Below the pieces are notes generated by a model. The model saw nothing but the letters and a program-made list of their open reading frames with translations. It was not told the DNA's origin and searched no databases. Shown piece after piece: positions 5,467 through 57,962 of a stretch of DNA of 64,000 nt. The stretch spans positions 11,524-75,523 of the forward strand of contig DASVRN010000100.1 in NCBI GenBank assembly GCA_036388595.1, written 5' to 3'. Positions within the stretch are counted from its first letter, which is position 1. Every line of letters begins with the position of its first letter. Position numbers and translations under genes: made by a program. The DNA is from Chloroflexia bacterium (GTDB lineage Bacteria; Chloroflexota; Chloroflexia; QHBQ01; JADMIH01).

Positions 5467-5469
5467 GCC

Positions 5470-14166: not shown

Positions 14167-14167
14167 T

Positions 14168-14247
14168 TTGGATTTTGGATTTTGGATTTTAGATTGGTTT
14201 GGAGTGCTTCTTAATCCAAAATCCAAAACCTAAAATCCAAAATCGAA
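14168..14247. repeat. heptamer-arm hairpin: (GGATTTT)n ... (AAAATCC)n inside the moa operon
   Basis: ggattttggattttggattttagattgg at 14170-14197 and ccaaaatccaaaacctaaaatccaaaatc at 14214-14245. Confidence 0.8.
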
Positions 14248-26756: not shown

Positions 26757-26834
26757 TTTGGGAATTGGGATTTCGGATTTCGGATTTTGTTCCGATTTCC
26801 AGCTAAATCCGAATTCCGAATTCCGAAATCCCAA
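26757..26834. repeat. hairpin element ggatttgggaattgggatttcggatttcgg ... ccgaattccgaattccgaaatcccaaat
   Basis: Near-palindromic arms end 1 nt before the ATG at 26835. The left arm is about 90% identical to the element at 39304. Confidence 0.75.
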
Positions 26835-43435: not shown

Positions 43436-44275
43436 ATGAATAAAGAAGCGAACCCACGTCCCACCGGCACCCCGACCCGCCCTACCGGCAACTCCACCGG
43501 GAGCCCTACCCGACCTACAGGAGCGGGTGCGAACACCAAGCAGGCCGCGTCCAACCGTCCCGGAGGTACCGTACGCACCGGCTCCACAGGCTCCCAGAAC
43601 CGCAACTCCAGCGGGACCGCACGCAGGCAGCCGCCGAAACAGCAATCCATTGGACTCAAGCCCTTAGACATCGGCCTGCTGGTGCTCGGCGTGGCGGTTG
43701 TGGTGGGCGTGATATTCTGGGTGCTGGCAGGCCAGAACACGTCGCCTACCCTCACGACCGGCACCGGCACGCAGCAGCAAAATCCCGGCCAGATCGACCC
43801 GGCGAACCCGCCCAAGCTGGCCGAGGGCAGCCCCGCGCCCGACTTTACCCTGCCCGGCGTTGACGGTCAGACCTACAAGCTGAGCGACTATAGGGGCAAG
43901 GTGGTGCTGCTTGAGTTCATGGCCCCCTGGTGCCCGCATTGCCAGGCAGACGCGCCAATATTCAACCAGGTCGCTCAGAACTTCCAGGGGCAGGACGTAC
44001 AGGTGCTGGCGGTGAGCGCGACAACCGAGAACAAGGACCGCAACGGCCCCATCAGCATGACCGACATGACGTGGTTCCGCGACCAGTTCGGCGTAACCCA
44101 CCCGCTGCTGTTCGACCAGTCGGTTGCCGCCGCCCAGGCTTACCAGGTCTACTACTACCCTACGGTGTACATAGTGGACAAGGAAGGCAAGATCGCCAAG
44201 TTCGTCCTGAGCGAGCAGGGCAATCCCCTCACGGTAGAGCGCCTGACCAACGAGATCAACAGCGTCCTTCAGTAA
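43436..44275 (+). CDS. TlpA/ResA-like thiol:disulfide oxidoreductase (membrane-anchored)
   Basis: Pro/Thr-rich N-terminus, one TM helix, then FTLPGVDGQTYKLSDYRGKVVLLEFMAPWCPHCQ (CxxC thioredoxin fold). Confidence 0.8.
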   Translation: MNKEANPRPTGTPTRPTGNSTGSPTRPTGAGANTKQAASNRPGGTVRTGSTGSQNRNSSGTARRQPPKQQSIGLKPLDIGLLVLGVAVVVGVIFWVLAGQNTSPTLTTGTGTQQQNPGQIDPANPPKLAEGSPAPDFTLPGVDGQTYKLSDYRGKVVLLEFMAPWCPHCQADAPIFNQVAQNFQGQDVQVLAVSATTENKDRNGPISMTDMTWFRDQFGVTHPLLFDQSVAAAQAYQVYYYPTVYIVDKEGKIAKFVLSEQGNPLTVERLTNEINSVLQ

Positions 44276-44342
44276 GTTATGAGTTGTGAGTTATGAGTGT
44301 TGAGTTAGCCTGCTACGGCTGATTCAGCACTCATAACTTTAG
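44275..44342. repeat. imperfect hairpin: gttatgagttgtgagttatgagtgttgag ... cagcactcataac
   Basis: Decamer-like gttatgagt(t/g) repeats with a partial complementary arm. Confidence 0.5.
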
Positions 44343-44356
44343 GAAGGCGGAAAAGA

Positions 44357-45055
44357 GTGGAAGACGCGACGCAACTCAAGACTGAAAGCACAACGTACAG
44401 GACGCTGCGGTATCTCACGCTCGTGTCGCGGTTGGTGCTGGGGGTGATATTCGCGCTTGCGGGGCTGGCTAAGCTGGGCCTGCCGTTCGCCATGGCCGAG
44501 AGCATCAGGGCTTACGAGATGGGTCTGCCGCCATTCATGGTAGACTTCATGGCTAACGTGCTGCCGCCCGTCGAGTTGGGCGTGGGCATATGGCTGCTCA
44601 TGGGCCTGTTCACACGCTTTTCGGCGGGTATAACGGCGGCGCTCATGGTGGTGTTCACCATCGCGGTGACGCAGGCGTGGGTACGGGGGCTGGACATCAA
44701 CTGCGGGTGCTTCGGAGGGCCGATGGGCGCGGACGCTTCCACCACCCCGGCGGCGCGGGCCATCATCGGCGCGATGGGTCCGGTGGGCGTGTTCCTCACC
44801 AACGAGAAGGCCGACCTGATGACAATTGGGCGCGACCTGGTCTTCTTACTTATGTCAATTCACCTGATACTCGTACCCAGCGTCTTCTCGATTGACCAGT
44901 TGCGGCAGTCGCGGCGGCAGCCTACGTACGAGGAAGATACCTACTACGACGAGGACGAAGCGTATGAGAAGGCCGATGATAGCCGGGAACTGGAAGATGA
45001 ACACCGACCCGGACAGCGCGTTCGAGTTGATGGACTCGATGCTGGAAGACCTTGA
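44357..45055 (+). CDS. DoxX/MauE-family membrane protein
   Basis: 4 TM helices, ...LDINCGCFGG... (MauE-type CGCFG). The acidic C-terminal tail overlaps the tpiA start by 92 nt. Confidence 0.65.
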   Translation: MEDATQLKTESTTYRTLRYLTLVSRLVLGVIFALAGLAKLGLPFAMAESIRAYEMGLPPFMVDFMANVLPPVELGVGIWLLMGLFTRFSAGITAALMVVFTIAVTQAWVRGLDINCGCFGGPMGADASTTPAARAIIGAMGPVGVFLTNEKADLMTIGRDLVFLLMSIHLILVPSVFSIDQLRQSRRQPTYEEDTYYDEDEAYEKADDSRELEDEHRPGQRVRVDGLDAGRP

Positions 45056-45725
45056 CGCCTTTTCCGATATCGACATAGTCATCTGCCCGCCATTCGTCTC
45101 GATAGAGACATTCGCGGACCTATTCGACGGCACGAGCCTCTACCTGGGCGCGCAGAACATGCACTGGGAGGAGCGCGGTGCCTTCACGGGCGAAATCTCG
45201 CCGCTGATGCTCCAGAACAGGTGTGACTACGTAATCCTGGGGCACTCGGAGCGTCGCCAGTACTTCCATGAGACCGACGAGGACGTGCAACGTAAGGTGA
45301 TAGCTGCCCTTCGCCACGACCTGCGGCCCATCGTGTGCGTGGGCGAGAGCCTGGCCGAGTACGAGGCGGGCGACACCTGGCACACGGTAAGCAGGCAGGT
45401 GGGCCTGGCGCTTGGCGGGCTGGACATGCAGCAGGTGGTGATCGCCTACGAGCCGGTATGGGCCATAGGCACGGGCAGGGCGGCCACCCCGGAGATCGCC
45501 AACGAGGTGATAGCCCAGATCCGCGAGAAGGTGCGCAACATGCATGGCGACGAGATAGCCGACGACACCCGCATCCTGTACGGCGGCAGCGTCAACGCCA
45601 ACAACATAGCAGAGTTCGTGTCGATGCCGGAGATAGACGGCGCGCTGGTGGGCGGGGCCTCGCTGGACGCGGAGCAGTTTGTGCGGATTGTGGCGGTGAC
45701 GAACGAGGCGAGAAATAGGATGTAG
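44964..45725 (+). CDS. tpiA: triosephosphate isomerase
   Basis: MRRPMIAGNWKMN and ...AYEPVWAIGTG.... Start at Met25 of the track ORF. Confidence 0.9.
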   Translation: MRRPMIAGNWKMNTDPDSAFELMDSMLEDLDAFSDIDIVICPPFVSIETFADLFDGTSLYLGAQNMHWEERGAFTGEISPLMLQNRCDYVILGHSERRQYFHETDEDVQRKVIAALRHDLRPIVCVGESLAEYEAGDTWHTVSRQVGLALGGLDMQQVVIAYEPVWAIGTGRAATPEIANEVIAQIREKVRNMHGDEIADDTRILYGGSVNANNIAEFVSMPEIDGALVGGASLDAEQFVRIVAVTNEARNRM

Positions 45726-45819
45726 GGAGAAGAGGAGAATGGATAGCTTACCGAGCGGGAGTGCTCGGCAGGGGCACCGCCTCTTTGTTAGTACCTGAAC
45801 GCTGCGGAAACGATCTTTC

Positions 45820-48339
45820 CTATGACGTATTTTGACTGCTTAGCCTTATGGCGTCTTCAAGCCACTTTCCTGCAGTAGTTGTCTTTGGATGTTCAGGCCC
45901 TAGGTACTTGTGAAATGTTCTGTACGCACTTGTCAGGCATCCCTGTGCCTCTTGAAAATTGCCTCCTTCTAGTAGGGCTACACCCAAGTTGGCCAGCCAT
46001 GTAGCTGCTTCTGGGTGGTCTGGACCATATACTGCTTCGCCAATAGCAAATGCTCTCTCGAAGTTAGAACGTGCCCCTTGCAGGTCTCCAAGTTCTCGTA
46101 GTACGGTGCCTAACATGCTTAATCTCACTGCCACATTTGGATGATTAGGACCGTACACGGACTTATCAATGGCAAGTGCCCTCTCTAAGTTGGAGCGTGC
46201 CCCTTGCAGGTCTCCAAGTGCTCGTAGTATAGCGCCCAAGTTATTTAAGCCTACAGCTACATGAGGGTGATCAGGGCCATGCACAGACTTGATTATAGCA
46301 AGTGCTCTCTCGAAGTTGGAGCGTGCCCCTTGCAGGTCTCCAAGTTCTCGTAGTACGGTACCTAAGTTATTCAACCTTGCAGCCACAGTAGGATGGTCTG
46401 GACCATACATAGACTTACCTATAGCAAGGGCTCTCTCGTGGTTGGAGCGTGCCCCTTGTAAGTCTCCAAGTACTCGTAGTACCGTGCCTAAGTTATTCAA
46501 CCGTATAGCCACTGTAGGATGGTCTGGACCATACACTGCTTCGCCAATCACTATTGCTCTTTCAAGCTGGTCTCTTGCCTCCTTGTACTGTGCTCTATGC
46601 TCCAGATATAAGCCCACCTCGTTCAAAACATGCGATAGTAATTCACCAATTCCCTTAGTAGTAGGTATTTGTAAGTCAAAAAAGGAGATCACTGCTAACG
46701 CGTGCGGCAACACACTAGCTGCAATAGGCCATGTACCCATGCCGTCTATTCTATAGCTGAAGCCATCTCCCACTACACGTAAGGCTGCCTCTATCCACGT
46801 CTGCCTCGCATCAGGTGACAGTTTATCGCGTACTACAGCTTGTACCAGACGGTGGATTGATATACTGCGTCTATCTTTGTCTACCTCAACCAGCGAATAC
46901 TTGCCTAACTCTCCAACTACGTCATCCAACTTAAGAGGTTCCGATACTGCTTTCTTGAGGCTCTCCGGCAAGTGGTCAGCCCCTGCTACGATCATGTCTA
47001 ACGGAATGTCCTCAGGAGCGAAGAAAGCGCACAGATTCAGCAGGTCGGCTGCCGCCGGTGAGTGCCCGCGCACGGCTTGGAATGTTAGCTCCCAGGTAGC
47101 AGCTATGGTGGCTGGATAATCGTCCGAAGGGATGAATGCCTTATCTCTGTACTCCTGGAACAAGGGCAGATAGTCGGCTAGCGATTTCTGTTTCTGCTCC
47201 ATGTATGCACCTGCCTGTGCCAGGGCTATGGGCAGAAAACCCAACCCCTCCGCGAGTTTGCCTGCTGTGGCTCGGTCCTTCTCCCCCGTGCGTTTCAGCA
47301 GGAAATCAACGGCTTCCTCCGGCTCCAGCACTTCTACAACTACGGGTTGAGCGTATTGCCGCCAGTTCGGGTTGCGGGACGTAATGAGCACATGCCCGGT
47401 GCCGACTTGAGGCAGATACTTCGCTATTTGCTTGCCATCCTCCGCATTGTCAAACACAAGCAGCCACCTGGTGTTCTCCCTCAGCCAGCGTAAGACTGCC
47501 TTAACATCAGCATCCTGGTCCCTGGTGTCTAGCTGAGATATTCCCAGTTCGCCCGCTAAAGCTGCAAAATCGGCTGCGAGCGTGGTAGGTTCCTCAGCAC
47601 GCACCCACAACACAGCATCATATTCGCCTGCATAACGGTAGGCATATTCATTGGCAAGCTGTGTCTTGCCAACACCACCCAACCCGTGTAGGGCTTGAGG
47701 CTGCGTCAAGGCGGCGTGCTGGCCGGAGGTAAGTTTCTCAAGTAGGTCTTGAAGCAATTCCTCACGCCCGGTGAAATTGAGGTTGCGGGAGTGTGGCACC
47801 GTCCAAACCCTCGGGAGGGCGGGCCTCGGGGGTAGGGGCGGCGTAGTGCTGGAACGCGTCGCAGAACCACTTTGCCTGCTTCGCCTTAGTGCCTCCGCTA
47901 CTTTCGCTATTCCTTGTGCGACATTGGTAAAGGCTTCATCTATATCCGGCCAACTCCTGACAGGCTTCCCATCGGTTGGTAAGAAGTTTAGCTTTCCGAA
48001 TATCGCACCCTTCCAGTACACGGAACGTATGATGATGGGAATAACACTCGCTTTGCGGGCCTCGTGCCGTTCCATAGCTCGCTTCAACTCCACGCTGGAG
48101 CAGTAACGGGAGGCAAGGAAGTCAGAACTGATAAGAAGGAGTATTATATCTGCGCTATTAAGGTGCTCATCTATCTCGTGCTCCCACTCTGTGCCCGCGC
48201 TGATGTTGCGGTCGTGCCAATTACTGATCACACCGTTGGTTCTCAATATGCTAAGATGCTTTTCAAGTTTGTCGCGAAGGTCCTCATCCTCATGTGCATA
48301 TGAGTAGAACACCTCCAATGGCTTTTCTGCGTCAGACAT
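45820..48339 (-). CDS. TIR - NB-ARC (STAND P-loop NTPase) - TPR-repeat protein
   Basis: Start MSDAEKPLEVFYSYAHEDEDL (ATG 48339). TIR-like domain (...SADIILLLISSDFLASRYCSSVELKRAMERH...). Walker A GLGGVGKTQLANEYAYRY. NB-ARC-like region (LLVFDNAED...ITSRN). About 7 near-identical 42-aa TPR units (ERALAIGKSMYGPDHPTVAARLNNLGTVLRELGDLQGARSNF). Codon usage is visibly AT-richer than that of neighbouring genes. Confidence 0.85.
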   Translation of the reverse strand: MSDAEKPLEVFYSYAHEDEDLRDKLEKHLSILRTNGVISNWHDRNISAGTEWEHEIDEHLNSADIILLLISSDFLASRYCSSVELKRAMERHEARKASVIPIIIRSVYWKGAIFGKLNFLPTDGKPVRSWPDIDEAFTNVAQGIAKVAEALRRSRQSGSATRSSTTPPLPPRPALPRVWTVPHSRNLNFTGREELLQDLLEKLTSGQHAALTQPQALHGLGGVGKTQLANEYAYRYAGEYDAVLWVRAEEPTTLAADFAALAGELGISQLDTRDQDADVKAVLRWLRENTRWLLVFDNAEDGKQIAKYLPQVGTGHVLITSRNPNWRQYAQPVVVEVLEPEEAVDFLLKRTGEKDRATAGKLAEGLGFLPIALAQAGAYMEQKQKSLADYLPLFQEYRDKAFIPSDDYPATIAATWELTFQAVRGHSPAAADLLNLCAFFAPEDIPLDMIVAGADHLPESLKKAVSEPLKLDDVVGELGKYSLVEVDKDRRSISIHRLVQAVVRDKLSPDARQTWIEAALRVVGDGFSYRIDGMGTWPIAASVLPHALAVISFFDLQIPTTKGIGELLSHVLNEVGLYLEHRAQYKEARDQLERAIVIGEAVYGPDHPTVAIRLNNLGTVLRVLGDLQGARSNHERALAIGKSMYGPDHPTVAARLNNLGTVLRELGDLQGARSNFERALAIIKSVHGPDHPHVAVGLNNLGAILRALGDLQGARSNLERALAIDKSVYGPNHPNVAVRLSMLGTVLRELGDLQGARSNFERAFAIGEAVYGPDHPEAATWLANLGVALLEGGNFQEAQGCLTSAYRTFHKYLGPEHPKTTTAGKWLEDAIRLSSQNTS

Positions 48340-48540
48340 ACGTTGCTCCCCAAGGCGAGGTATGAGAACACAGTGGCTTGTGTATAGCCACATTATAGCT
48401 GTACTAATGTTTGTAGGGAAGTGATAGCGCGTGCTTACAGATCGGGCAATAGTTGTAGAGGAATGGACAGGGTCTAATCGCGAGCAAAGCCAACAAGCAT
48501 CCACCTTCTAGGATGCTCGTTGGCTTTGTTCAGACGATAC

Positions 48541-49995
48541 TTACTTGTATCTTATTACCGCGAAGTCGGTGTCGAACATGTCTTCCTGGCGCAGGGTGGC
48601 GGAGCCGACTACTATCACCTTGCCGTCGGGCTGCACCGTCATTGCCAGGCCGATATCGTGAAAGTCGTCGAACTGGGTTGCTACCAGGCCCTCGTCGCCG
48701 AAGCTTTCGACCTTTGTGCCGTCCGGGTTCAGCAGCATGAGCGCGATAGCGTCGTTGTCGTCAATCGAGCCTGCGGTGAGCAGCTTGCCATCCGGCAGCC
48801 TCACAACGTCGTAGTTGAGGTCGGTGCCCTGCCTGTAGCCTACCTTGCCGTCGCCCCCAAAGCTTTCGTCGGGCGTGCCGTCGGGGTTGTACTGCGCCAG
48901 CCCGAAGCCGGGAGAGGCACAGGCGTCGGTCTCGCAGAAGGTCACATCGATGTACACGGGACCCGCGGCAACAATTTTACCGCCGGGCAGCACTAAGAGA
49001 GCTTCGATATAGTCACGGTCCTGGCGGAAGTCGGTCATCACCACGCCGTCCCTGCCGAACTCATCGTCCAGGCTGCCATCTTCGTTGTAGCGCACCAGCG
49101 TGTAGTCGTGCCCTTCCATCCCGGTGCTAGGATCGTCCGAACCATAGCCACCTACTAACACCTTGCCGTCGGGCTGCACCGCCACCGCGTGCGCCATCGC
49201 ATCGTTGGGGAACGAGGTGACCACACGCCCGCCGTCACCGAAACTCTCGTCAAGCGTACCATCTACGTTGAGCCGCACGGTCGCAAAGCTGTGTGGGTAG
49301 CGCCCCGTCATGCCCGCGAGCACAATCTTGCCATCGGGTGCCAGGGTGACCGCGTGCGCCTCCTCCTCCGAGGAGCTGCCCTCGGTCTGGTCAACAGCCA
49401 CGAGCGCCTTGCCGTCCTCACCGAAGCTCTCGTCCGGGCTGCCGTCCGGATTGTAGCGAAGGGCCGCAAATACCAGGTGGCCGGCATCAAAATCCAGCGT
49501 GGTGCCTACCGCTATGTACTTGCCGTCGGGCTGCTGGATAAGGGCGTGTGGCTCGCTATAGTCGTACTCAGAGTCGGTGACGTTGACCACCAACTTGCCG
49601 TCTTCTCCGAAGGTGGTGTCCAGGTTGCCCCTAGAATCGTAGCGGGTAAATGCAAACTGCGCCTTGGTCTTAGGCCACGTCTCACCCAGCACCACGATCT
49701 TGCCGTCTGCCTGCACAATTGCACCAACGGCCTCTTCGGGGCTGCCTCCTATGTTAGTGGTTACCTTCCCGCCTTTGCCGAATGACGTATCAAGTGTGCC
49801 GGCAAACGGGGACGCATCAACATGGGGAGTCCTGGTGGCACGGGCTGCCGTTCTAGTTTCAGAGGACTGTGGGGCGGGTTGAGGTGTGCCCTGGGTGGGG
49901 CTGACTTCACCGCAGGCTGTGTTCAGGATGAGGGGCAGCACCGCGAAGGCGGCAACGATAAGCTGAGTTGGTCTCGTGGGGTACTTGTTTGGCAT
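48541..49995 (-). CDS. secreted delta-60-repeat beta-propeller lipoprotein
   Basis: Signal ...LPLILNTACGE, then about 9 repeats of the form FGxDGKVVTxF...(P/Q)DGKIVVxG. Confidence 0.7.
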   Translation of the reverse strand: MPNKYPTRPTQLIVAAFAVLPLILNTACGEVSPTQGTPQPAPQSSETRTAARATRTPHVDASPFAGTLDTSFGKGGKVTTNIGGSPEEAVGAIVQADGKIVVLGETWPKTKAQFAFTRYDSRGNLDTTFGEDGKLVVNVTDSEYDYSEPHALIQQPDGKYIAVGTTLDFDAGHLVFAALRYNPDGSPDESFGEDGKALVAVDQTEGSSSEEEAHAVTLAPDGKIVLAGMTGRYPHSFATVRLNVDGTLDESFGDGGRVVTSFPNDAMAHAVAVQPDGKVLVGGYGSDDPSTGMEGHDYTLVRYNEDGSLDDEFGRDGVVMTDFRQDRDYIEALLVLPGGKIVAAGPVYIDVTFCETDACASPGFGLAQYNPDGTPDESFGGDGKVGYRQGTDLNYDVVRLPDGKLLTAGSIDDNDAIALMLLNPDGTKVESFGDEGLVATQFDDFHDIGLAMTVQPDGKVIVVGSATLRQEDMFDTDFAVIRYK

Positions 49996-50505
49996 TCTTG
50001 TATAGAGTCCTTTTCTATGTACGTCATTGTTGAGACTTTCTATATAGTCGCCGGTATGTGATCTTTATTGCAGGAGCATACAAGGATGCTCAGGCTAACG
50101 CATCAGCCTAAGAGTGGAATGCGGTACATACAATGATGTAGCGGAGAGTGTAGAACGATCGGAGCCAGAGGCTGCGACCCACGCTGCTACCGCTACTGGG
50201 ACCTATCTCCCATAGCTCATTACAACTGCATGTAGTATCCTAGACCCAGGAAACGTTCGTGCAGGGGCGGAACGTGAAGGCTATGTCCCGACCTTGCCTG
50301 TGCTATGCGATGTATGAAAAGCAGGACATTTGCGTGCGTCTCGCCACAACACGAAGACAGGTAGTGCCAGCAGTCCTACTCGTGGCGCATGCATGTACTC
50401 CCGGAGAAGCGGTGATCTGAGGTATTTGAGTCAGTCAATAGCTGGATTTGAAGGTGTAATGGCGGAGCAAAGGAAAGCCGCCTGGTTTCATCTCGACAGT
50501 AACCC

Positions 50506-51069
50506 TTGGGAGATCGCCCCTACGTGAATGGCTCGCGTCATTTGAAAGCACACCCACAACGGTCCGCATTCTGGAAGCTGCTGGTGCGTGTTCATGTGCT
50601 GCTGTGGCTGGGCATCATCGCAGGTGTAACGCTAGCCATTGCCTTTGGGGTGAGCGGTGTTGGAGAGACCGGTGTGCTCCTATGCTTGATCATATACCTG
50701 ACCACCGTAGCACTTGTGGGCTTGCTTGTCGGGCGAGCGTTGGGCCGCTCCAAACAGCGTCCGATCCTTCAAGGCTCTAGTGCAACGGAAGCACTAATCT
50801 TCGTCACCGATGCGGTAGCTGCGTCTGCGCTTATGATGGGTTTTGTCCTGCAAGCAGCGTCAGCAACCTACGGCCAGGTTTACGGCCGCTTAGGCTTTGC
50901 CTTCATGCTTACGGCCGGTGTAGCCTGGCTAGCGAGCTTCATTGCTGCTTTGAGGATCTACTTCCGCACCGGAAATAGGATGCTCGTTGCTCTCGTCTGC
51001 TGTTTCATCTGGATCAGCATAGTGTTTGTATATGAGATTCTGACCGGTCGCCAGTATTGGGGCTTCTGA
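50506..51069 (+). CDS. hypothetical 4-TM membrane protein
   Basis: 187-aa ORF with hydrophobic segments. No family recognised. Confidence 0.4.
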   Translation: MGDRPYVNGSRHLKAHPQRSAFWKLLVRVHVLLWLGIIAGVTLAIAFGVSGVGETGVLLCLIIYLTTVALVGLLVGRALGRSKQRPILQGSSATEALIFVTDAVAASALMMGFVLQAASATYGQVYGRLGFAFMLTAGVAWLASFIAALRIYFRTGNRMLVALVCCFIWISIVFVYEILTGRQYWGF

Positions 51070-51191
51070 AGTAACCATTTCGGTATCTAGAGTCATCCTC
51101 TTGCTCCGGTTGTTCGGCCTGCATACCAAGAGTAAGGCTGGTAAGAGATTTGAACTATTCTATGCTGCGGTAGATGCTAGAGGGGCCGGGG

Positions 51192-54191
51192 CTACTCTTC
51201 GTCGTCCAAGGGTGAGGCTTCCGGCTCCTCTTCTTCATCCTGCCTATCAGCTTCATTTTCATTTTGGCCTGTGTCTGCCCTGGGGGCGAAGCCTATCATA
51301 CCCGCCATCTCCACCACGCCCCGGCGCATCAACTTGTCGGCCTCGGATAGGGTGGCGCGGAGGGGGTTTTGGGGGTCCTGGTGGGCCAGCATGTCGCGCA
51401 CCTGGCGCATGAGGTCGAGGGTCTTGTTGAAGGTCATCACGAGGTCGCCCTCGCTCATCTGCATCTGGTCGAGCAGGTCGGCTATGGAGGTGCCTTTACA
51501 CCAGGCGCGGGCGGCCCCGTAGAAGTAGGGGTTGTAGCCGCGTGTGAGGGCGAGGTCCTGGCGGCGCTCGGCGGAGAAGATGGCGTTTTGCAGGCTGTCG
51601 AGATCGCGGCGCAGGTTGAGCAGGTAGCGCGGCAGCAGCAGGCGGTTGAGGAAGTCGATGTCGCGGTCGTAGGCGAACCAGGAGAAGACTTCCGCCAGGT
51701 CCTGCGGCTTCAGCCCGTCAAAGTAGCCCCCCTCCACCATCTCGGTGATCATCAGGGTGTTGGTGTCGAAGATGTCGGCCAGCTTGCGCGCCTTGTAGGT
51801 TGGCTCGCCCTTGCGCAGGTACGCGAACTGCACCAGCACAGTGGTAAGACCCTTAAGTGTGTTCTGAAGGCGGGTTTCCTCGTAATGCCGGCGCTCGGAC
51901 AGGCGCTTCTCGGCGGCGTCCCGGTCGAGCAGGAGGCGGGCGCGGAGGCGGCGGTTGCTGCGGTGCTCCTTGCGCACTGGGCAGTGGTGGCAAACGTGCT
52001 CCCTCTCGGCTTTAGTAGCCACAGCAAGCTCGGCCCGCGCTTCCTCCAGGTTGGCCTTCGCCTTAGTAGAAACCTCCTCTATATGCTCCAACTGCGCCGC
52101 CCGGTACTCCTCTATCCAGGCCTGGATGTCGGGGACAGCCTGTAGACCCAGGCCCGCGCTCTCCCGCAGTTGCCCTAGCTCCTCGGCGGGTAGTAGTTCC
52201 TCCAGGGGCATGGTGGGGGGCACCGCAAGCGTGGTGAGGGCAAAGGGCAGGTCTACCGTGACGGTGACGGTATGCAGGTAGTCTATCTGCCGGTACTCGG
52301 TGAGCGCGAAAATTTCCCCAAGCCGCACGCCCTCTTCTCCCCGGCTCACAGGCAGGAACAGCCCAATCACTGCCCCGCCCAACCCTCTCCCCAGGTATGC
52401 CGCCCAGCCTTGCCCCTCGATGTGCACCAACGCACCTTGTGGCAAGCTGCGGAAGGCTTTGCGGAGTTGGTCGCGCTCAGGTCGTCGCCAGGGCAATTCG
52501 GTGCGGCGCGACTCGATATAGCTCACGTTCTGCTCGGCCTTGCGCTCTCGGCGGCGCAGGTCGTCCACCTCGCGGCCCCGGTGCTCGTATTCGTCCAGCA
52601 GTTCCTCGCCGTTGTCGTAGCCGATAAGGCAACCGGCGGGCACCTCGGCCAGGCGGGCTTCCTCGTCCTCAAGCTCCTGCTCCAGGTCGCGCAGGCGGCG
52701 GCTCTGCTGGAAGTTGAGGAGGGAGGCCCGCATGACGGTGAGCACCCGCTCTCCCCTCGGCGCGTCCCACAGGTTGAGCACCGAGTTGTAGCGCATGGTG
52801 AAGGCGCTCTCCACCGGGCGTAGAGGTCCCGTGGCGATGTTCAACGCCTCGTGGAAGGTCACCCAGGGGGAATAAGGCAGCACCACGTGCCCCTGCTCGT
52901 CAATACCCCGGCGGCCCGCCCGGCCGGACATCTGCTGGAACTCGTTGGGGATGAGGGGGCGGCGAGATACACCGTCGTACTTGCTCATGCCGCCGATGAC
53001 TACAGTGCGAGCGGGCATGTTTACGCCGAGGGCCAACGTATCGGTGGCGAACACCACACGCATAAGCGACTTGTTGAAAAGCTCCTCCACAAGCTGCTTA
53101 AGGATGGGCAGCAGGCCCGCGTGGTGGAAGCCGAAGCCCCGCCGCGCCAGGTACGTGATGAACTCCACCTGTTGCAGCCTGCGGTCTTCGGGGGTGAGAC
53201 GCTCCAGGTAGCTGGCGAGCACCTCGTTGATACGCTGCACGATCCGGCGGTCGCGCATCGCCTTGAGGCGGGTCATGGAGCAAATTTCGGCGGCGGCCTC
53301 GCAGTCGCGGCGGGAGAACTGGAAGTAGATGGCGGGGAGCAGGTCAGCCCGCTCTAGCTCCTCCACGATCTCGCGGGGGCCGGGTTCGCGACGCTCTCGC
53401 TGGGTGTTGGTGTCTTCCTCCAGAGTGGGGCCACGGTAGCGCCCGCCCTGCATCTTGCGCTTTAGCTCGCCGCCCACGTTGAAATCGACCACCTGCTGGC
53501 CCTGGGCGTTGATGACCATGTTGAGCGTGCCGTCGAGGAAGTAGTAGAGGGAGAGAGGCACGGCGCGTTGCAGGTGGGTGACCAGGTGCACCGGCTGGTG
53601 GGTGCGGGTAATCCAATCCGCGATTTCGGGGGCGTTGGTCACCGTGGCGGAGAGGCAGACCAGTTGCACGTGCTTGGGGCACATGATGATCGACTCTTCC
53701 CAGGTGGTGCCGCGCTCCGGGTCGGCCAGGTAGTGGACCTCATCGAAGATGATGCAGCCAACACCCCAAAGCTCCGAGGGCGTCTGGAGGAGCATGTTGC
53801 GCAGCACCTCGGTGGTCATGACGATGATGGAGCCTTCGCGGTTCTCTATCACGTCGCCGGTGAGGAGGCCCACGGCGTCGCCGTACTGTTCGCGGAGGTC
53901 GCGGAACTTCTGGTTGGAAAGGGCTTTGATGGGGGTGGTGTACATCACCTTGAAGCCCTGGCGCGCCGCGCGGAAGATGCCGAACTCGGCCACAACGGTC
54001 TTGCCGGTGCCGGTGGGGGCCGCCACCATGACACTCTCGCCCGCCGCGAGGTGCGCGATAGCCTCCTCCTGGAACGGGTCGAGGGGGAAGGGATAGCGCC
54101 CGCGAAACTCCTCTACGAGGTGTTGGGCTTCGGGGGTGAGGTTGCCGGGTTGCGGTTCGGCTTGGGTGGTCTGCTTGGGTTTGCGGGGCAT
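51192..54191 (-). CDS. helY: Ski2-like DEAD/DEAH-box helicase (HelY family)
   Basis: FPLDPFQEEAI...MVAAPTGTGKT (motif I), IFDEVHYLAD (DExH), SATV, ...HHAGLLP...QQMSGRAGRRG (motif VI), and a long C-terminal domain. Confidence 0.85.
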   Translation of the reverse strand: MPRKPKQTTQAEPQPGNLTPEAQHLVEEFRGRYPFPLDPFQEEAIAHLAAGESVMVAAPTGTGKTVVAEFGIFRAARQGFKVMYTTPIKALSNQKFRDLREQYGDAVGLLTGDVIENREGSIIVMTTEVLRNMLLQTPSELWGVGCIIFDEVHYLADPERGTTWEESIIMCPKHVQLVCLSATVTNAPEIADWITRTHQPVHLVTHLQRAVPLSLYYFLDGTLNMVINAQGQQVVDFNVGGELKRKMQGGRYRGPTLEEDTNTQRERREPGPREIVEELERADLLPAIYFQFSRRDCEAAAEICSMTRLKAMRDRRIVQRINEVLASYLERLTPEDRRLQQVEFITYLARRGFGFHHAGLLPILKQLVEELFNKSLMRVVFATDTLALGVNMPARTVVIGGMSKYDGVSRRPLIPNEFQQMSGRAGRRGIDEQGHVVLPYSPWVTFHEALNIATGPLRPVESAFTMRYNSVLNLWDAPRGERVLTVMRASLLNFQQSRRLRDLEQELEDEEARLAEVPAGCLIGYDNGEELLDEYEHRGREVDDLRRRERKAEQNVSYIESRRTELPWRRPERDQLRKAFRSLPQGALVHIEGQGWAAYLGRGLGGAVIGLFLPVSRGEEGVRLGEIFALTEYRQIDYLHTVTVTVDLPFALTTLAVPPTMPLEELLPAEELGQLRESAGLGLQAVPDIQAWIEEYRAAQLEHIEEVSTKAKANLEEARAELAVATKAEREHVCHHCPVRKEHRSNRRLRARLLLDRDAAEKRLSERRHYEETRLQNTLKGLTTVLVQFAYLRKGEPTYKARKLADIFDTNTLMITEMVEGGYFDGLKPQDLAEVFSWFAYDRDIDFLNRLLLPRYLLNLRRDLDSLQNAIFSAERRQDLALTRGYNPYFYGAARAWCKGTSIADLLDQMQMSEGDLVMTFNKTLDLMRQVRDMLAHQDPQNPLRATLSEADKLMRRGVVEMAGMIGFAPRADTGQNENEADRQDEEEEPEASPLDDEE

Positions 54192-54347: not shown

Positions 54348-54578
54348 ATGAGCGCAGACTACCAGGATATCATCACCATCGAACCCGGCAAGCGCAGTGG
54401 GAAGCCCACGATTCGAGGCATGCGAATCACCGTATACGACGTACTCTCCTATCTGGCAGCCGGTATGACCCATGAGGAGATATTAGAGGACTTCCCTTAC
54501 CTGACTGAGCGGGATATATTGGCCTGCCTCAGTTACGCCGCTGACCGAGAGGCTCATGTGGTAGTCACGCATACGTGA
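54348..54578 (+). CDS. DUF433-family small protein (antitoxin-like)
   Basis: 76 aa, ...IEPGKRSGKPTIRGMRITVYDVLSYLAAGMTHEEILEDFPYLTERDI. Its stop overlaps the next gene's GTG (GTGA). Confidence 0.7.
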   Translation: MSADYQDIITIEPGKRSGKPTIRGMRITVYDVLSYLAAGMTHEEILEDFPYLTERDILACLSYAADREAHVVVTHT

Positions 54579-54907
54579 AATTGCTTTTCGACCACAACCT
54601 CTCACCGCGTCTCGTTCAGAAACTCTCCGACCTTTATCCTCAAAGTGAACACGTATACAACATTGGCTTAGATAGGGCTACGGACGATGAAGTTTGGCAT
54701 GTAGCTCAGGATAGTGGCTATGTAGTTGTAACGCGAGATGCCGACTTCAGTGACTTGAGTACGCTAAGAGGATTTCCACCCAAAATTATCTGGATACGTA
54801 TTGGCAACTGCCCTACTAGCCGAATAGAGGCAGCTTTACGTGCCCAGGAGGAGCAGATCAGCGCATTCGGCGACGACAGCGGCAGCGGTATACTTATGAT
54901 ACTTTAG
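54575..54907 (+). CDS. DUF5615-family (PIN-like) protein, putative toxin partner
   Basis: 110 aa, ...DHNLSPRLVQKL...DDEVWHVAQDSGYVVVTRDADF. Confidence 0.6.
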   Translation: MKLLFDHNLSPRLVQKLSDLYPQSEHVYNIGLDRATDDEVWHVAQDSGYVVVTRDADFSDLSTLRGFPPKIIWIRIGNCPTSRIEAALRAQEEQISAFGDDSGSGILMIL

Positions 54908-54999
54908 TTCCGGCTACAAGAATTCACCACGTCGTACAGCCACGTCAGCAACAGCAGTGGTGAAGTTTATCAGATTGACCTACTGGATTAGGATGTCGC

Positions 55000-55608
55000 A
55001 TGCAAGAGTCTGTTCAGGGTTACGAGCCTGTAATCATAACCAGGAAAACGGGCGACGAGCCTTTCCACTTGGACAACAGCCCGCTAGAACACAAATTGCT
55101 GGACTTCTGGAGGTGGGCGGCTTCCGATCTCGTAGGCAACACCGCAAGGGGCGTACTTGCTGAGTACATCGTGGCTATGGCTCTTGGGGTGGCAGAGGGA
55201 GTGCGCCTTAGCTGGGATGCCTTCGATCTAACAACTCCGTCAGGTGTGAAAATTGAAGTGAAGTCAGCCGCTTACCTGCAGGCCTGGTACCACAAGAAGC
55301 TATCTGCTGCCATCTTTACGATACGGCCAACCCGCGTCTGGAATCCCGACACAAACGAGTTAGATCCGGAAATTAAACGGCAGGCAGACCTTTATGTGTT
55401 CTGCGTGCTCAAGCATAAGGACAAGGCCTCTCTTGACCCACTCAATCTCAAGCAATGGGACTTTTACCTGTTGCCTGTTGGGGTACTGAATGCACGGATG
55501 CCAGTCCAGAAGACGCTTTCGCTGTCGAGCTTGCTTAGGCTTAGTCCTGTTCAAGCTACATACGAGACCTTGCGTGATGCTGTGCTAGCTATGGATTGCA
55601 GGCGATGA
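55000..55608 (+). CDS. hypothetical protein with PD-(D/E)xK-like motif
   Basis: 202 aa, WDAFDL...GVKIEVKS (D-x9-E-V-K) preceded by GVLAEYIVAMALG. Lower GC than flanks. Confidence 0.4.
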   Translation: MQESVQGYEPVIITRKTGDEPFHLDNSPLEHKLLDFWRWAASDLVGNTARGVLAEYIVAMALGVAEGVRLSWDAFDLTTPSGVKIEVKSAAYLQAWYHKKLSAAIFTIRPTRVWNPDTNELDPEIKRQADLYVFCVLKHKDKASLDPLNLKQWDFYLLPVGVLNARMPVQKTLSLSSLLRLSPVQATYETLRDAVLAMDCRR

Positions 55609-56027
55609 TAGCTAAACCCCGCACCGACGGCCTATACCGCACCGTCGAATCCAAGACGCTAGACACCGAGGGTGAGGAGGGCACGCCCTACTGGAACTAC
55701 CTGCGCTTCTACCCGGACGGCCACGTAATCAGCACCTCCACCACCGGCACGCCAGCGCAGATCGTCACGTGGTTCGCCCAGGAGGGTGTGAACGACACCT
55801 ACTTACCGATGGGTGACTACCGGGCTGATGGGCCTACCGTTAGCTTCACTACGCAAGCCAGGGCGGAGAACGTTGATAGAGACGGCTATGAGTACGAAAC
55901 AAGGGTGGACTACACGGTAACAATTCAGGACGAGAACGCTAATCTGCTACTGGTGACAACGCACAGTCACATCAACGGGCATGTGGGCACCGAGTTGTAC
56001 GAGTTCGTGAGCATGGAGGACAACTAG
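55596..56027 (+). CDS. hypothetical protein
   Basis: 143-aa ORF overlapping the previous gene by 13 nt. No family recognised. Confidence 0.4.
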   Translation: MQAMIAKPRTDGLYRTVESKTLDTEGEEGTPYWNYLRFYPDGHVISTSTTGTPAQIVTWFAQEGVNDTYLPMGDYRADGPTVSFTTQARAENVDRDGYEYETRVDYTVTIQDENANLLLVTTHSHINGHVGTELYEFVSMEDN

Positions 56028-56111
56028 AGGCACGACGGGCCTAGAATGCGAACAGCCCGGCTAGCTCAGATGGAGGGCGCAGCCGGGCTGTTTTCGCTTC
56101 AGCCAGTTAGA

Positions 56112-56639
56112 TTATGGCTTAGGGGCGTTGGGGTTCTTATTTTTGTTGCCCGGATGGTTGGGGTTGTTCTTGGGGCCGCCCGCCCAGGGTGGCTTACCGG
56201 GGCCACGTATCGTCTCGCCGTTGATGGTGTACACTTCCAGGCTGGGCACGGTCGATTGTGGCGGCTGGGCGGCTGGGTTGCCCTTGTTCTTGTTCTTGGC
56301 CTTCCCGAACGCCTTGCCCTTCTCGGCTTCGACCACGCCCGTCACCGTCACCTGCCGGCCCGCGTACTTATCGAGGGGGTACGCGCCATTGGCGTAATAC
56401 CAGGGCGGGCCGGCGGAGAGGCGATAAAGTGTCGCGCCGCTGCCGTTCTTGAGCAGGTAGCTCTTCTCGCCGCCTGCCGTTTCGACCACCAGCGTGCCGG
56501 TGGTGGTGATTACGTTTTCGGGGGCCTTGGGCGGCTTGGGTTTGTTGGGCTTGGCCTGGGCGCTCGAACCACTTACGAGCAGCGCCAGTACCACCAGGGT
56601 AGCACCAAACGCGGCCCAGAATCTGAATGTGCGTGACAT
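56112..56639 (-). CDS. small secreted Lys/Pro/Asn-rich protein
   Basis: Signal peptide ...LVSGSSAQA, then Lys/Pro-rich N- and C-terminal tails around a ~90-aa core. Confidence 0.5.
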   Translation of the reverse strand: MSRTFRFWAAFGATLVVLALLVSGSSAQAKPNKPKPPKAPENVITTTGTLVVETAGGEKSYLLKNGSGATLYRLSAGPPWYYANGAYPLDKYAGRQVTVTGVVEAEKGKAFGKAKNKNKGNPAAQPPQSTVPSLEVYTINGETIRGPGKPPWAGGPKNNPNHPGNKNKNPNAPKP

Positions 56640-56801
56640 GAACTCGGTTCTCCTTACAGTCTGCTACGCCCGCGTGACGAAAAGTATTGCTATTGTGATT
56701 GTATATGCAGCAGGCAGGCCGGGGAATAGCTCATTCGGGCTATGAAGCGCTGCCGGTTACGCGCCCACAGCAGCTTCATAGATAGAAGCAGGCCCCTACA
56801 G

Positions 56802-57140
56802 CTAAGGCATGTCACTCGTTCTAGACTGTTTCTGCCCCCTATGGAGCCTATAGATGAGGTAAGCCGAGAAGAATAGAACCACGATGAACGCGACGAATAC
56901 GGCAAGCACCGTTAATAGAGTAGTTATGGGGATGTAAGCAGTGCCAAAAGGTTTTAGCTCGACAAAGTTGTCGCTGCTGATCGAGCCAGAGCCACCAATA
57001 TGGATGTGCCACCCTTCCACAATGGTAGATGGTCTAAACGAAGAGTAGATGGAAATCTCGAACGCAGTAAGGAGCAAGATGAAGAGGAGGAACGTAACAC
57101 CGATACCTAAACGCTTTGCAAGTGTAGGGGATTTGCTCAT
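56802..57140 (-). CDS. small 2-TM membrane protein in AT-rich islet
   Basis: 112-aa ORF. The surrounding 56640-57340 is about 48% GC versus ~63% in the flanks. Confidence 0.4.
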   Translation of the reverse strand: MSKSPTLAKRLGIGVTFLLFILLLTAFEISIYSSFRPSTIVEGWHIHIGGSGSISSDNFVELKPFGTAYIPITTLLTVLAVFVAFIVVLFFSAYLIYRLHRGQKQSRTSDMP

Positions 57141-57341
57141 GTCAGGAACACCGCTGAATCAGGCGTAGTAAGCACTCGTCGTTTAGCCTATTTTACTACC
57201 ACTTACCTGTAGTGCCAAATAAAGAAAGATTACTCAAGATGGCAGATTCAGAAGTAAAGCAGTAGGCAAGGCTTCTCAGGATGCCCTTAATACCGGCTTG
57301 CACAGGCATATTACAGGACAAGCTGTAACACGCACTAGAGA

Positions 57342-57962
57342 TTATGCAGGCGGGTAGGGACAGTGTGCCCATATCAGCTTCATCGGCAGGAGCAGCCCGC
57401 GCCTGTTCTCCACCCGCTCGACCCGCAACCCTGCCTCACGAATAAGCTTCTCGGTATCCTGGTTCAATCTACATCCGCCCGCGAGCCTCGACCACACAGG
57501 GGCAAGCGCGTCCTGCATCTTCGCCTGCACGCGGTTCCCGGCCCTGACGTGTTCGAGGAAGCGGGCGGTAGCGCCGGGCTTTAGCACCCGCCTGACTTCG
57601 GCCAGCGCCGTGTGAGGGTCGGGGATGGTGCAGAGTGCCAGGTTACACACCAGTGCGTCGAAGGTGGCGTCGGGGAAGGGCAGGCGCATGGCATCGGCGG
57701 CCGCTACGACTACCCCGGCACGCGCCGATTTCGCCCTGCTGCTCAGGCGAGGCAGGCTGGCGGGGTCGAACTCGGTGGCGACCACCCGCGCGGCAGGCGA
57801 GTAATATCGCAGGCTCAGCCCGGTACCCGCCCCAATCTCCAGCACCAGGCCATCGAGCGGAGCTATTAGTTTACGCCTGCGCGGCCCAATGAAGAACATC
57901 TCCGGCGGCCCCTGTAGCGCCAGGTCGTAGAAGAATGGGTTGGTGGCTGGTGAAGTAGGCAT
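57342..57962 (-). CDS. class I SAM-dependent methyltransferase (Methyltransf_11-like)
   Basis: VLEIGAGTGLSLRYY and ...FDALVCNLAL.... Confidence 0.8.
   Translation of the reverse strand: MPTSPATNPFFYDLALQGPPEMFFIGPRRRKLIAPLDGLVLEIGAGTGLSLRYYSPAARVVATEFDPASLPRLSSRAKSARAGVVVAAADAMRLPFPDATFDALVCNLALCTIPDPHTALAEVRRVLKPGATARFLEHVRAGNRVQAKMQDALAPVWSRLAGGCRLNQDTEKLIREAGLRVERVENRRGLLLPMKLIWAHCPYPPA

Follow-up and report, generated by a model that had tools for sequence, protein, structure and literature searches.

Within the window, by which we mean the whole 64,000-nucleotide stretch of DNA that was analysed, a single minus-strand open reading frame preceded by GGGGAG runs from an ATG at 48339 to a stop at 45820 and encodes a protein of 839 amino acids. 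Judged from its sequence, it is an intact bacterial NLR-like gene, with a predicted TIR enzyme head, an ATP switch and a TPR sensor (Table 1). The gene is convergent with tpiA (end at 45725) and has a same-strand DUF5122/delta-60 propeller gene upstream of it, which places it between the two neighbors that an earlier note on this DNA had assigned to it. Its GC content is 0.519 and its GC3 is 0.511, with the TPR part as the lowest segment (GC3 0.40). That note had described a gene with AT-rich codons in a genome of ~63% GC. The deviation itself is real, with a GC3 of 0.51 as compared to 0.75-0.86 in the neighbors (gap, pgk, tpiA, the helicase gene, gltX and others), but the GC content of the window is 60.3%, and housekeeping genes lie at 61-66%. 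No further STAND paralogues were found within the 64-kb window.

Table 1. Coordinates of the STAND gene, its parts and the surrounding features (positions in the window).
Feature	Position	Strand	Basis or remark
TIR-NB-ARC-TPR STAND gene, complete CDS including stop	45820..48339	minus	ORF/translation; Pfam, PADLOC and NCBIfam domain matches; AlphaFold2 model
TIR domain with C-terminal helical extension, aa 1-160	47860..48339	minus	
NB-ARC/AP-ATPase NOD module with winged-helix/DUF7779, aa 186-545	46705..47784	minus	
TPR sensor, aa 546-839	45820..46704	minus	TRF; unit identities; kinesin-light-chain-type TPR similarity
Putative own promoter/5'UTR block of the cassette	48340..48465	minus	conserved in syntenic alleles and two L095 paralogues
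Hairpin, probable terminator	48482..48531	minus	directly after the propeller stop codon; part of second insertion
tpiA, conserved left flank of the variable site	44997..45725	plus	Pfam TIM; synteny in L003-L008, L083, L093, L094
DEAD/DSHCT (HelY-like) helicase, conserved right flank	51192..54191	minus	Pfam; adjoins tpiA in L003, L008
Second nested insertion, this genome only	48466..51190		absent from L083, L093, L094
Delta-60/DUF5122 propeller lipoprotein	48541-49995	minus	within second insertion; family matches
181-aa multi-pass membrane protein	50524-51069	plus	within second insertion; translation

The N-terminal part of the protein matches Pfam TIR_2 at residues 10-106 (57.3 bits, cutoff 28). 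Together with its helical extension it matches the PADLOC ThsB1 model PDLC00420 at residues 9-178 (2.5e-60, 202 bits), which is the strongest TIR match. The predicted catalytic glutamate, E84 (codon 48088-48090), lies within 'SSDFLASRYCSSVEL' and is invariant in 31 family members, such that the residue whose loss the earlier note had considered as a possible counterargument is kept. E84 aligns with the glutamate of the plant 'WCLD-EL' motif (7xoz), of Cat1 and of the bacterial TIR 7uxr, a column which we take to be that of the catalytic glutamate, as established for plant, SARM1 and bacterial TIRs. In an AlphaFold2 model of the 839-aa protein (mean pLDDT 85.6), the predicted TIR domain superposes on those of RPS4, RPP1, MAL and TIR-SAVED. 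With the profile and predicted fold of an enzymatic TIR domain and the conserved glutamate all present, the domain is predicted to be catalytically competent.

The central part carries a Pfam NB-ARC match (PF00931, residues 194-385, 44.9 bits, cutoff 23.5), followed by DUF7779 at residues 425-510. The P-loop or Walker A motif GLGGVGKT is found at residues 219-226 (nt 47662-47685), Walker B (LLVFDN) at residues 293-298, a sensor-1 arginine region (TSR) at 320-322, a GxP/GLPL-type motif (GFLPIA) at 367-372 and an MHD-type histidine motif of the winged helix (IHR) at 495-497. K225, D297, T320 and H496 are invariant in the 31 family members, and the NTPase switch motifs are all intact. The modelled module superposes on ADP-bound Apaf-1 (1z6t), resting NRC2, the NRC1 NB-ARC and the autoinhibited archaeal STAND-TPR protein PH0952 (6mfv). 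Profile, switch motifs and an NBD-HD-WHD fold like that of Apaf-1, CED-4 and plant NLRs all agree with the AP-ATPase/NB-ARC clade of STAND proteins. The TIR-like domain, the P-loop and the NB-ARC region that the earlier note had read from the translation are thus borne out by profile searches, as are the TPR_10/12 repeats, which occur in six stretches.

These six Pfam TPR_12/TPR_10 stretches (268 and 194 bits) correspond to six 42-aa units at residues 580-831 (nt 45847-46602), and the segment resembles the TPRs of the kinesin light chain type. The earlier note had counted about seven near-identical units, which is an overestimate of both number and likeness. The four central units are 64-79% identical to each other at the protein level and 67-79% at the DNA level, the first unit is 48-60% identical to the central ones, and the last 21-29%. 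Tandem Repeats Finder reports a period of 126 with 4.2 copies and 79% matches on this segment. The central units therefore fall short of the 80-90% unit identity of the NLRs with highly conserved repeats of Dyrka et al. Between alleles, the two terminal units alone are positionally orthologous, and the internal units are about as similar within one protein as between proteins, which shows neither strict positional orthology nor strong homogenization. Concerted evolution of the units was considered and is not supported by this pattern.

The gene occupies a variable site between two conserved flanks. In two Chloroflexia relatives (L003, L008), the site is empty and tpiA directly abuts the helicase gene; in L005 it is occupied by a different gene; and in three close relatives (L083, L093, L094) the STAND gene is its sole occupant. 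The comparative loci thus constitute a true presence/absence polymorphism, a point that the earlier note had proposed to check. In the window, the inserted block (about 45770-51190) comprises three genes and stems from two nested insertions. The second of these, in which a 510-bp low-GC spacer separates the propeller lipoprotein gene from the membrane protein gene, is not part of the TIR-STAND cassette. Hence, the earlier description of a single-gene insertion holds for the cassette itself, but not for the block as a whole. Paralogues of the STAND gene are found at other chromosomal sites in L085 and L095. The site has the atypical composition and the presence/absence between conserved flanks of a variable hotspot, but it lacks the hallmarks of mobility: no tRNA genes were found in the window, no direct or inverted repeats flanking the island, and no integrase, transposase or recombinase among the neighboring genes. 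Rfam, searched with the island at E<=0.1, returned no matches.

Upstream of the gene, a block of ~100 bp accompanies each copy and is better conserved than the coding sequence among the four syntenic alleles and the two L095 paralogues; the nucleotide alignment between the window and L083 reaches to 48465. The conserved core of this block, 24 nt long (CATTAGTACAGCTATAATGTGGCT), occupies 48386-48409, 53 nt ahead of the ATG, and includes a perfect TATAAT at 48392-48397. The block was detected only through the comparison of alleles, and a generic sigma-70 scan gave no flag there; a scan of viral contigs for the 24-nt core yielded no matches. The hairpin behind the propeller gene has 21-nt arms that are 90% complementary and a loop of 8 nt, and it probably acts as a terminator, setting the TIR-STAND transcription unit apart. 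Since a conserved promoter block belongs to the gene itself, the hairpin stands upstream of it and in three relatives the helicase gene is its upstream neighbor, it is a solo transcription unit, as the earlier note had surmised in finding no co-transcribed partner. Co-transcription with the propeller gene was rejected, since a hairpin stands between the two genes, the STAND gene has a conserved promoter to itself, and three other alleles have no propeller gene beside them. The promoter block could act as a dedicated regulatory element that is shared by the entire paralogue family.

The four alleles at this site are only 65-73% identical, whereas the flanking proteins are 88-99.7% identical. 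Their synonymous divergence is mosaic, in that the TIR and TPR ends are near saturation while the central NOD resembles the flanks, and the nearest neighbor of an allele changes by domain. Divergence between alleles is greatest in the TPR region (62-68% identity at the amino acid level), where they also differ by entire 42-aa units. The effector and sensor ends thus diverge or recombine far faster than the core or the flanks. Of the earlier suggestion that the repeats reflect recent expansion or diversification, diversification fits these whole-unit differences, but an expansion of near-identical repeats is not what the units display. When metagenomes were scanned by pattern for further close alleles, the relatives recovered were all at 34-54% identity. 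The GC3 of the syntenic alleles is 0.50-0.55, and codon usage is non-native in every allele found. Because this low GC3 is common to alleles from lineages whose flanks differ by a dS of ~0.3, the acquisition was not recent. An ortholog in all relatives with native codon usage, the situation that the earlier note had named as speaking against its reading, is also not what we find, since some relatives lack the gene and no allele has native codons. The 839-codon reading frame is uninterrupted in at least five lineages, and each domain is under purifying selection (dN/dS 0.07-0.39), so the gene is functional; with a gene-wide dN/dS below 1, positive selection is not demonstrated.

We consider it probable, though with considerable room for doubt, that the product of the gene is an NLR-like bacterial receptor of the AP-ATPase/NB-ARC clade, in which a catalytic TIR domain, a nucleotide-switch NOD and a sensor of kinesin-light-chain-type TPRs are combined in a conflict-gene cassette. 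A solo, variable cassette of foreign composition with fast-evolving ends behaves as would be expected of a conflict gene. The most likely function, going by the domains, would be that of a ligand-gated, oligomerizing NADase in cell-suicide immunity, and homology of the same domains suggests an antiphage or abortive-infection role. The resting protein would be a monomer, bound to ADP and autoinhibited. Once the TPR array had bound a foreign ligand, for which a protein or peptide of a phage is the likeliest candidate, autoinhibition would be released and ADP could be exchanged for ATP, upon which the NOD would oligomerize and the assembled TIR domains would form active NAD+-cleaving sites around E84. 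NAD+ would then be depleted, or ADPR-type products made, and the infected cell would stop growing or die, which in filamentous Chloroflexia would protect neighboring cells.

The same receptor might instead use its TIR domain to make a signaling nucleotide (a cADPR isomer or an ADPR conjugate, as by Thoeris ThsB or plant TIR-NLRs) that activates an effector elsewhere in the genome. ThsB proteins are signal producers, not NAD+ depleters, and it is with a ThsB model that the protein has its best match in the defence database, much stronger than that to Pfam TIR_2; furthermore, the predicted structure resembles the plant TNL RPP1 across TIR and NB-ARC. Yet there is no ThsA or other Ths or candidate effector gene within +/-10 kb or beside the syntenic alleles, and what moves and varies is one gene together with its promoter, an argument for a system complete in itself, such that we regard signaling of this kind as unlikely. 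Membership in a Thoeris system proper, which had also been considered for the locus, was rejected, as the ThsB-type TIR is present but the adjacent effector gene is absent. About as unlikely, in our estimate, is a role outside antiviral defence, in which the protein would be a receptor for allorecognition and kin discrimination or for developmental cell death in a filamentous bacterium, with its alleles under balancing selection. The analogue would be the het-type NB-ARC/TPR NLRs of fungi, which control allorecognition (as cited in bioRxiv 10.1101/2020.01.06.895854). Hyper-divergent alleles at a fixed position between highly conserved flanks, with TIR and TPR ends that differ at synonymous sites far more than the flanks do, are what one would expect for old allelic lineages, and neither phage nor defence genes are linked to the locus. 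However, the site is empty in some relatives, which would be unusual for an essential recognition locus, paralogues reside at other sites (L085, L095), there is no co-inherited partner or ligand gene, and diversification driven by phages together with gene conversion between paralogues would give the same pattern.

That the gene is a recently acquired, functionless or decaying product of horizontal transfer, or that its TIR domain is a non-enzymatic scaffold or regulator, is suggested by its foreign composition, but we consider this very improbable, given reading frames intact in at least five lineages, purifying selection in every domain, invariant catalytic and switch residues, a conserved promoter and a low GC3 that is common to lineages with diverged flanks and thus speaks against a recent arrival. 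Least probable of all, with hardly any likelihood left to it, is the function implied by the protein's database name. NCBI calls the exact protein an 'FxSxx-COOH system TPR protein', NCBIfam NF040586 ('FxSxx_TPR') matches it at 520 bits (cutoff 300), and genes for TIR-AP-ATPase-TPR proteins lie downstream of such systems in actinobacteria (Kaur et al., PMC7159879). It would then be the FxsT/TIR-AP-ATPase part of an FxSxx-COOH (RiPP-like) and vWA-MoxR-VMAP ternary system that senses a processed peptide. But no FxsB radical-SAM/SPASM, metallopeptidase, vWA, MoxR or VMAP gene is present within +/-10 kb or at the syntenic loci, and the sole CxxxCxxC reading frame in the 64 kb is a MoaA-like gene (13159-14229) that lies 32 kb away. 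A six-frame search found four reading frames ending in FxSxx, which is chance level, and the single frame among them that falls inside the inserted block (50435-50614) has no NCBIfam match; against the FxsC TIR model, the STAND protein reaches 20 bits, below the cutoff of 130. Membership was therefore rejected for this locus, the NF040586 match reflecting shared NOD-TPR homology. With the partner genes absent, the widely propagated name is unsupported and should not count as evidence of the system.

Returning to the conflict-gene cassette, its surroundings offer no help. PADLOC, the search that the earlier note had proposed, was run on eight neighboring proteins and detected no known defence genes beside the STAND gene, its only signal being the generic DEAD-box similarity of the conserved helicase; a location in a defence island was rejected on these grounds. 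For the protein itself, the scan at E<=0.01 did return the ThsB-type TIR model, along with SAVED-TIR, a generic TPR model and PDC-S66, but these were its only matches, and no Avs, bNACHT or NACHT model was among them. With neither an Avs/bNACHT match nor a flanking defence gene, there is no guilt by association for the STAND gene. The validated phage sensors Avs and bNACHT do follow the same logic, with an effector, a STAND NTPase and a repeat sensor encoded by one gene. The effector of some Avs proteins is a TIR domain, the TPR-like sensors bind proteins of phages and thereby set off oligomerization, and STAND clades have been labelled as defence-associated from their effector domain (PMC13581612); a preprint counts both Avs and standalone TIRs among the effectors that deplete NAD+ (bioRxiv 10.64898/2025.12.03.692087). 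In contrast to Avs and bNACHT, the NOD here is NB-ARC/Apaf-1-like, and the sensor is a regular six-unit array of kinesin-light-chain-type TPRs of ~290 aa, whereas the STAND sensors analysed in a 2026 survey measure at least 400 aa. Among the other systems with related parts, Thoeris ThsB is a stand-alone TIR in a two-gene system while the TIR here is fused to STAND-TPR, the archaeal PH0952, a STAND protein with a TPR sensor, is without a TIR effector, and Apaf-1 has CARD and WD40 domains. Double autoinhibition has been described for a STAND-TPR protein (PMC6468293).

The protein family is large and has already been described computationally. At E<=1e-10, over 7,500 homologues have the combination of TIR_2, NB-ARC, DUF7779 and TPR_10/12, with hosts that include Chloroflexi, myxobacteria, Acidobacteria and Methanosarcinaceae. 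Kaur et al. 2020 (PMC7159879) predicted that TIR-AP-ATPase-TPR proteins act as conflict effectors in multicellular bacteria, a computational account of this type in multicellular bacteria is also given by Dyrka et al. 2020, and both Koonin & Aravind 2002 and Leipe 2004 are cited for it in the literature. Bacteria that grow as filaments, Chloroflexi included, typically possess NLR-like proteins (bioRxiv 10.1101/2020.01.06.895854), and the host here is presumably a filamentous member of the Chloroflexia. The tripartite architecture is that of the described AP-ATPase-TPR STANDs with an N-terminal TIR, without any architectural difference. What is added here is at the level of the locus: the gene forms a cassette by itself and brings its own promoter block, one and the same site is occupied or empty depending on the genome, and the alleles are mosaic and hyper-divergent. 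Our literature search found no experimental test of the AP-ATPase/NB-ARC-TPR clade. The locus is a compact example, consisting of one gene and a promoter, and the empty sites and divergent alleles in near-isogenic backgrounds are natural controls; as a self-contained unit with such controls, it is a good candidate for testing the clade as ligand-gated NADases and for studying how the specificity of bacterial NLRs diversifies.

In this context, TIR-NB-ARC-TPR is the bacterial architecture that is closest to plant TIR-NLRs, and it is very numerous in multicellular bacteria. Plant TIR-NLRs such as RPP1 and ROQ1 have TIR and NB-ARC in the same order and the catalytic glutamate in the same 'S..S.(W/Y)C..EL' motif, and they likewise form allelic series with domain-level mosaicism at a fixed locus; they differ in having LRR and C-JID in place of the TPR sensor, and there is no EDS1-type downstream pathway here. 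It is conceivable, and we put this forward only tentatively, that the spacer between tpiA and the helicase gene hosts a true NLR allelic series, in which old TIR and TPR lineages are held under balancing or diversifying selection and reshuffled by recombination, for which two conserved stretches, the promoter block of ~100 bp and the central NOD, may serve as homology anchors. If so, NLRs would here evolve by the swapping of modules at a fixed locus of a bacterium, comparable to plant R-gene or fungal het loci. At the level of predicted structure, Foldseek aligns ~550 columns of the AlphaFold2 model to RPP1.

ORF calling and translation give one long reading frame on the minus strand for the TIR-STAND gene (STAND denotes a class of NTPase switches), in which the ATG, preceded by GGGGAG, is the biologically sensible start. 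The TIR, NB-ARC and TPR architecture that the earlier note had read from the sequence holds, with Pfam matches exceeding their cutoffs, and judged by its motifs the protein has all elements of a working STAND switch. In a family alignment of 31 members, K225, D297, T320 and H496 are invariant, as is E84 in the TIR motif SSDFLASRYCSSVEL. A single-sequence search and a TIR-only family profile place E84 on the column of the Glu in the plant 'WCLD-EL' motif (7xoz), Cat1 and bacterial TIRs; the profile matches Cat1 at 1.3e-13, and also AbTIR, RUN1/RPV1, RPP1, ROQ1 and TIR-STING. We take this column to be the catalytic residue, as established for TIR NADases.

The atypical composition noted earlier is real: GC is 0.519 and GC3 0.511 (down to 0.40 in the TPR part), strongly anomalous against a GC3 of 0.75-0.86 in gap, pgk, tpiA, the helicase gene, gltX and other genes of the window. 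The TPR array had been described as about seven near-identical units. We count six. Identity among the central four is only 64-79% at the protein level and 67-79% at the DNA level; with these central units the first unit shares 48-60%, the last 21-29%. TRF reports a period of 126, 4.2 copies and 79% matches.

Features of the TIR-STAND locus, its surroundings and related loci (window positions unless residues or a locus are named)
Feature	Position	Strand	Remarks
AhpC/TSA-thioredoxin-like and MauE/DoxX genes	43436-45055		split the gap-pgk-tpiA cluster; same in every Chloroflexia relative examined (L003-L008, L083)
tpiA	ends 45725	+	order: gap, pgk, AhpC/TSA-like, MauE/DoxX, tpiA, TIR-STAND
TIR-STAND gene	45820-48339	-	839 aa; stop 45820, ATG 48339
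TIR_2	res 10-106		Pfam, 57.3 bits (cutoff 28)
NB-ARC	res 194-385		Pfam, 44.9 bits (cutoff 23.5)
P-loop GLGGVGKT	res 219-226		
Walker B LLVFDN	res 293-298		
TSR	res 320-322		
GLPL-like GFLPIA	res 367-372		
DUF7779 (WH)	res 425-510		Pfam
MHD-like IHR	res 495-497		
TPR array	res 580-831		six 42-aa units; TPR_12/TPR_10 (Pfam), six stretches
ThsB1 match (PADLOC PDLC00420)	47806-48315		aa 9-178, TIR plus helical extension
Promoter block	48340-48465	-	~100 bp 5' of ATG
Small hairpin	48373-48391		directly after -10 box
Promoter core	48386-48409		24 nt; TATAAT at 48392-48397
Promoter core elsewhere	L083:7840-7863, L093:73-96, L094:1723-1746, L095:187-210, L095:4677-4700		
Nested insertion	48466-51190		specific to window genome; includes 510-bp low-GC spacer
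Hairpin	48482-48531		in nested insertion
Delta-60/DUF5122 propeller lipoprotein	48541-49995	-	adjoins TIR-STAND gene; signal lipoprotein-like; in nested insertion
Multi-pass membrane protein	50524-51069	+	181 aa; GC3 0.61; no family match; in nested insertion
DEAD/DSHCT helicase	beyond membrane-protein gene	-	conserved in all relatives
514-aa ORF	L005:10780-12324		tpiA-helicase spacer of another Chloroflexia MAG
TIR-STAND homologue	L085:1-1865		GCA_030156005.1, JALYDY010000023; 68% identical; GC 0.51
Two TIR-NB-ARC paralogues	L095:231-3317, 4748-5611		both on one short contig, with ~1.4 kb between them

Syntenic loci were retrieved with TpiA as query, and the closest protein homologues were also looked up. 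Among relatives, the spacer between the convergent tpiA and helicase genes is variable and occurs in several states. It is empty on contigs L003 (TpiA 89%, helicase 95% identical to those of the window) and L008, carries the TIR-STAND gene alone in L083, L093 and L094, and in the window holds the TIR-STAND, propeller and membrane-protein genes. Compared with L003, the breakpoints fall near 45770 and 51190; compared with L083, the extra block runs from 48466 to ~51190. These states and breakpoints mark the TIR-STAND cassette as a true single-gene unit, as the earlier note had proposed, but the inserted block in the window is larger, with another insertion nested immediately upstream of the cassette. 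No tRNA was found in the window and no repeats flanking the TIR-STAND gene. In L005, an unrelated ORF, by eye resembling a cyclopropane-fatty-acid-synthase-type methyltransferase, occupies the same spacer, which thus behaves as an insertion hotspot.

The stretch 5' of the ATG is far better kept among alleles than the coding sequence. This block, with a perfect TATAAT inside the core CATTAGTACAGCTATAATGTGGCT, stands near-exact before every TIR-STAND allele or paralogue found, including both paralogues on the non-syntenic contig L095, although their proteins are only 63-73% identical; it was not found in the empty spacer of L003 or on viral contigs. In the window, a hairpin with 21-bp arms follows the propeller stop codon, upstream of the block. 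Given its own conserved promoter block and this intervening hairpin, the gene is an independent transcription unit, which agrees with the earlier view that it lacks a co-transcribed partner. A common regulatory element (promoter or operator) is one possible role for the block, an anchor for recombination another.

L083 comes from a very close relative: Gap is 99.7% identical, TpiA, MauE, CofD and the helicase ~96%, and the flanks show dS 0.22-0.34 and dN/dS 0.01-0.10. At the same site, however, its TIR-STAND protein is only ~70% identical to that of the window, and a clean 42-aa indel gives it seven TPR units to the window protein's six. The four syntenic alleles are 65-73% identical overall (TIR 66-73%, N-terminal NBD 74-86%, C-terminal NBD/WH 64-85%, TPR 62-68%), whereas their TpiA is 88-96% identical to that of the window. 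All four have GC3 0.50-0.55, which makes the foreign composition a long-standing, maintained trait and not a mark of very recent arrival.

The alleles have diverged in a mosaic fashion. When the window is compared with L083, identity at third codon positions reaches 0.72-0.90 only at residues ~283-532, which is flank-like (helicase control mean 0.83); it is 0.30-0.62 at residues 1-260 (TIR, linker, N-terminal NBD), and the TPR has 0.46-0.66. Per domain, dS is 0.36 (WH), 0.62 (NB-ARC) and ~1.0 (TPR) and reaches saturation in the TIR, with dN/dS 0.07-0.39 in every domain; these estimates are noisy given short segments and an ambiguous TPR alignment register. The nearest neighbour also varies with the domain: for the TPR, and partly WH, the paralogues P0040 (in L085) and P0004 (in L095), from outside the site, rank with or above the syntenic alleles. 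Recombination or exchange of modules among the alleles and paralogues of a local pool fits this pattern; simple vertical divergence does not. Purifying selection on all domains indicates a functional gene; a dead or decaying one is rejected on three counts, namely dN/dS, the invariance of the key residues and the conservation of the promoter.

The L085 homologue, in a related genome, lies at a different site, just upstream of the counterparts of gltX and of the 1406-aa protein encoded at 30246-34466 in the window; the matching window position lacks a TIR-STAND gene. Between the L095 paralogues is a 352-aa ORF without Pfam match.

The earlier observation is for the most part confirmed once the number and identity of the repeats and the extent of the island are corrected; its interpretation as an NAD+-consuming immune sensor and effector is partly supported. 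The data directly support the architecture and the integrity of the catalytic and switch residues, and they show that the gene is under purifying selection, is organised as a solo unit, varies in its presence and has diversified as a mosaic. By homology with Apaf-1, plant NLRs, PH0952 and Avs proteins, the resting protein would most probably be an ADP-bound, autoinhibited monomer, in which ligand binding at the TPR would trigger nucleotide exchange and oligomerisation through the central NB-ARC/WH module; TIR-TIR assembly would then permit E84-dependent NAD+ cleavage, leading to growth arrest or death (PMC6468293; PMC13581612; bioRxiv 10.64898/2025.12.03.692087). Exactly such proteins have been predicted as conflict or cell-death effectors in multicellular bacteria including Chloroflexi (Kaur et al., PMC7159879; Dyrka et al., bioRxiv 10.1101/2020.01.06.895854).

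In a PADLOC search the strongest match of the TIR is the ThsB1 model, at 202 bits far above the 57 for Pfam TIR_2; this TIR subtype may be the source of the model or be covered by it. The match would suit a signalling TIR acting through an unlinked effector, but no effector is linked to any allele, and we consider this improbable. The protein falls outside the Avs and bNACHT families for which profiles exist, and its neighbours match no PADLOC model except for the helicase's generic DEAD-box similarity. Hardly likelier is allorecognition or developmental cell death, by analogy with fungal NB-ARC/TPR NLRs: allelic diversity at a fixed locus would fit, but empty sites and dispersed paralogues speak against an obligatory recognition locus. 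An identical protein is already on record from a Chloroflexia MAG under the NCBI name 'FxSxx-COOH system tetratricopeptide repeat protein', and the NCBIfam model is exceeded (520, cutoff 300); with all other components of that system missing from the surroundings of the gene, membership is very improbable, and the name reflects homology of the NB-ARC/WH-TPR module.

The family is very large (at least 7,500 clusters at E<=1e-10), its architecture computationally described for two decades. Of interest to specialists may be how the locus behaves: a self-contained promoter-plus-gene cassette with presence/absence and divergent alleles. Strongly divergent recombinant alleles between near-identical flanks, here at tpiA-helicase, recall plant R-gene allelic series. 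We advance such an R-gene-like series only tentatively: with four alleles compared pair by pair, balancing selection is not distinguishable from gene conversion among paralogues or from repeated replacement.

Beyond the helicase, positions 54348-57367 form another variable patch, with a DUF433/DUF5615 (PIN-like) toxin-antitoxin-type pair (54348-54907) followed by segments not alignable to L083 (54957-55963 and 56671-57367), which hold an endonuclease-IV-like ORF (55000-55608) and small ORFs of no known family. Elsewhere in the window, a 1019-aa DnaQ-exonuclease/DinG-helicase fusion (26787-29846) of ordinary composition (GC3 0.85) scores just under NCBIfam equivalog cutoffs.
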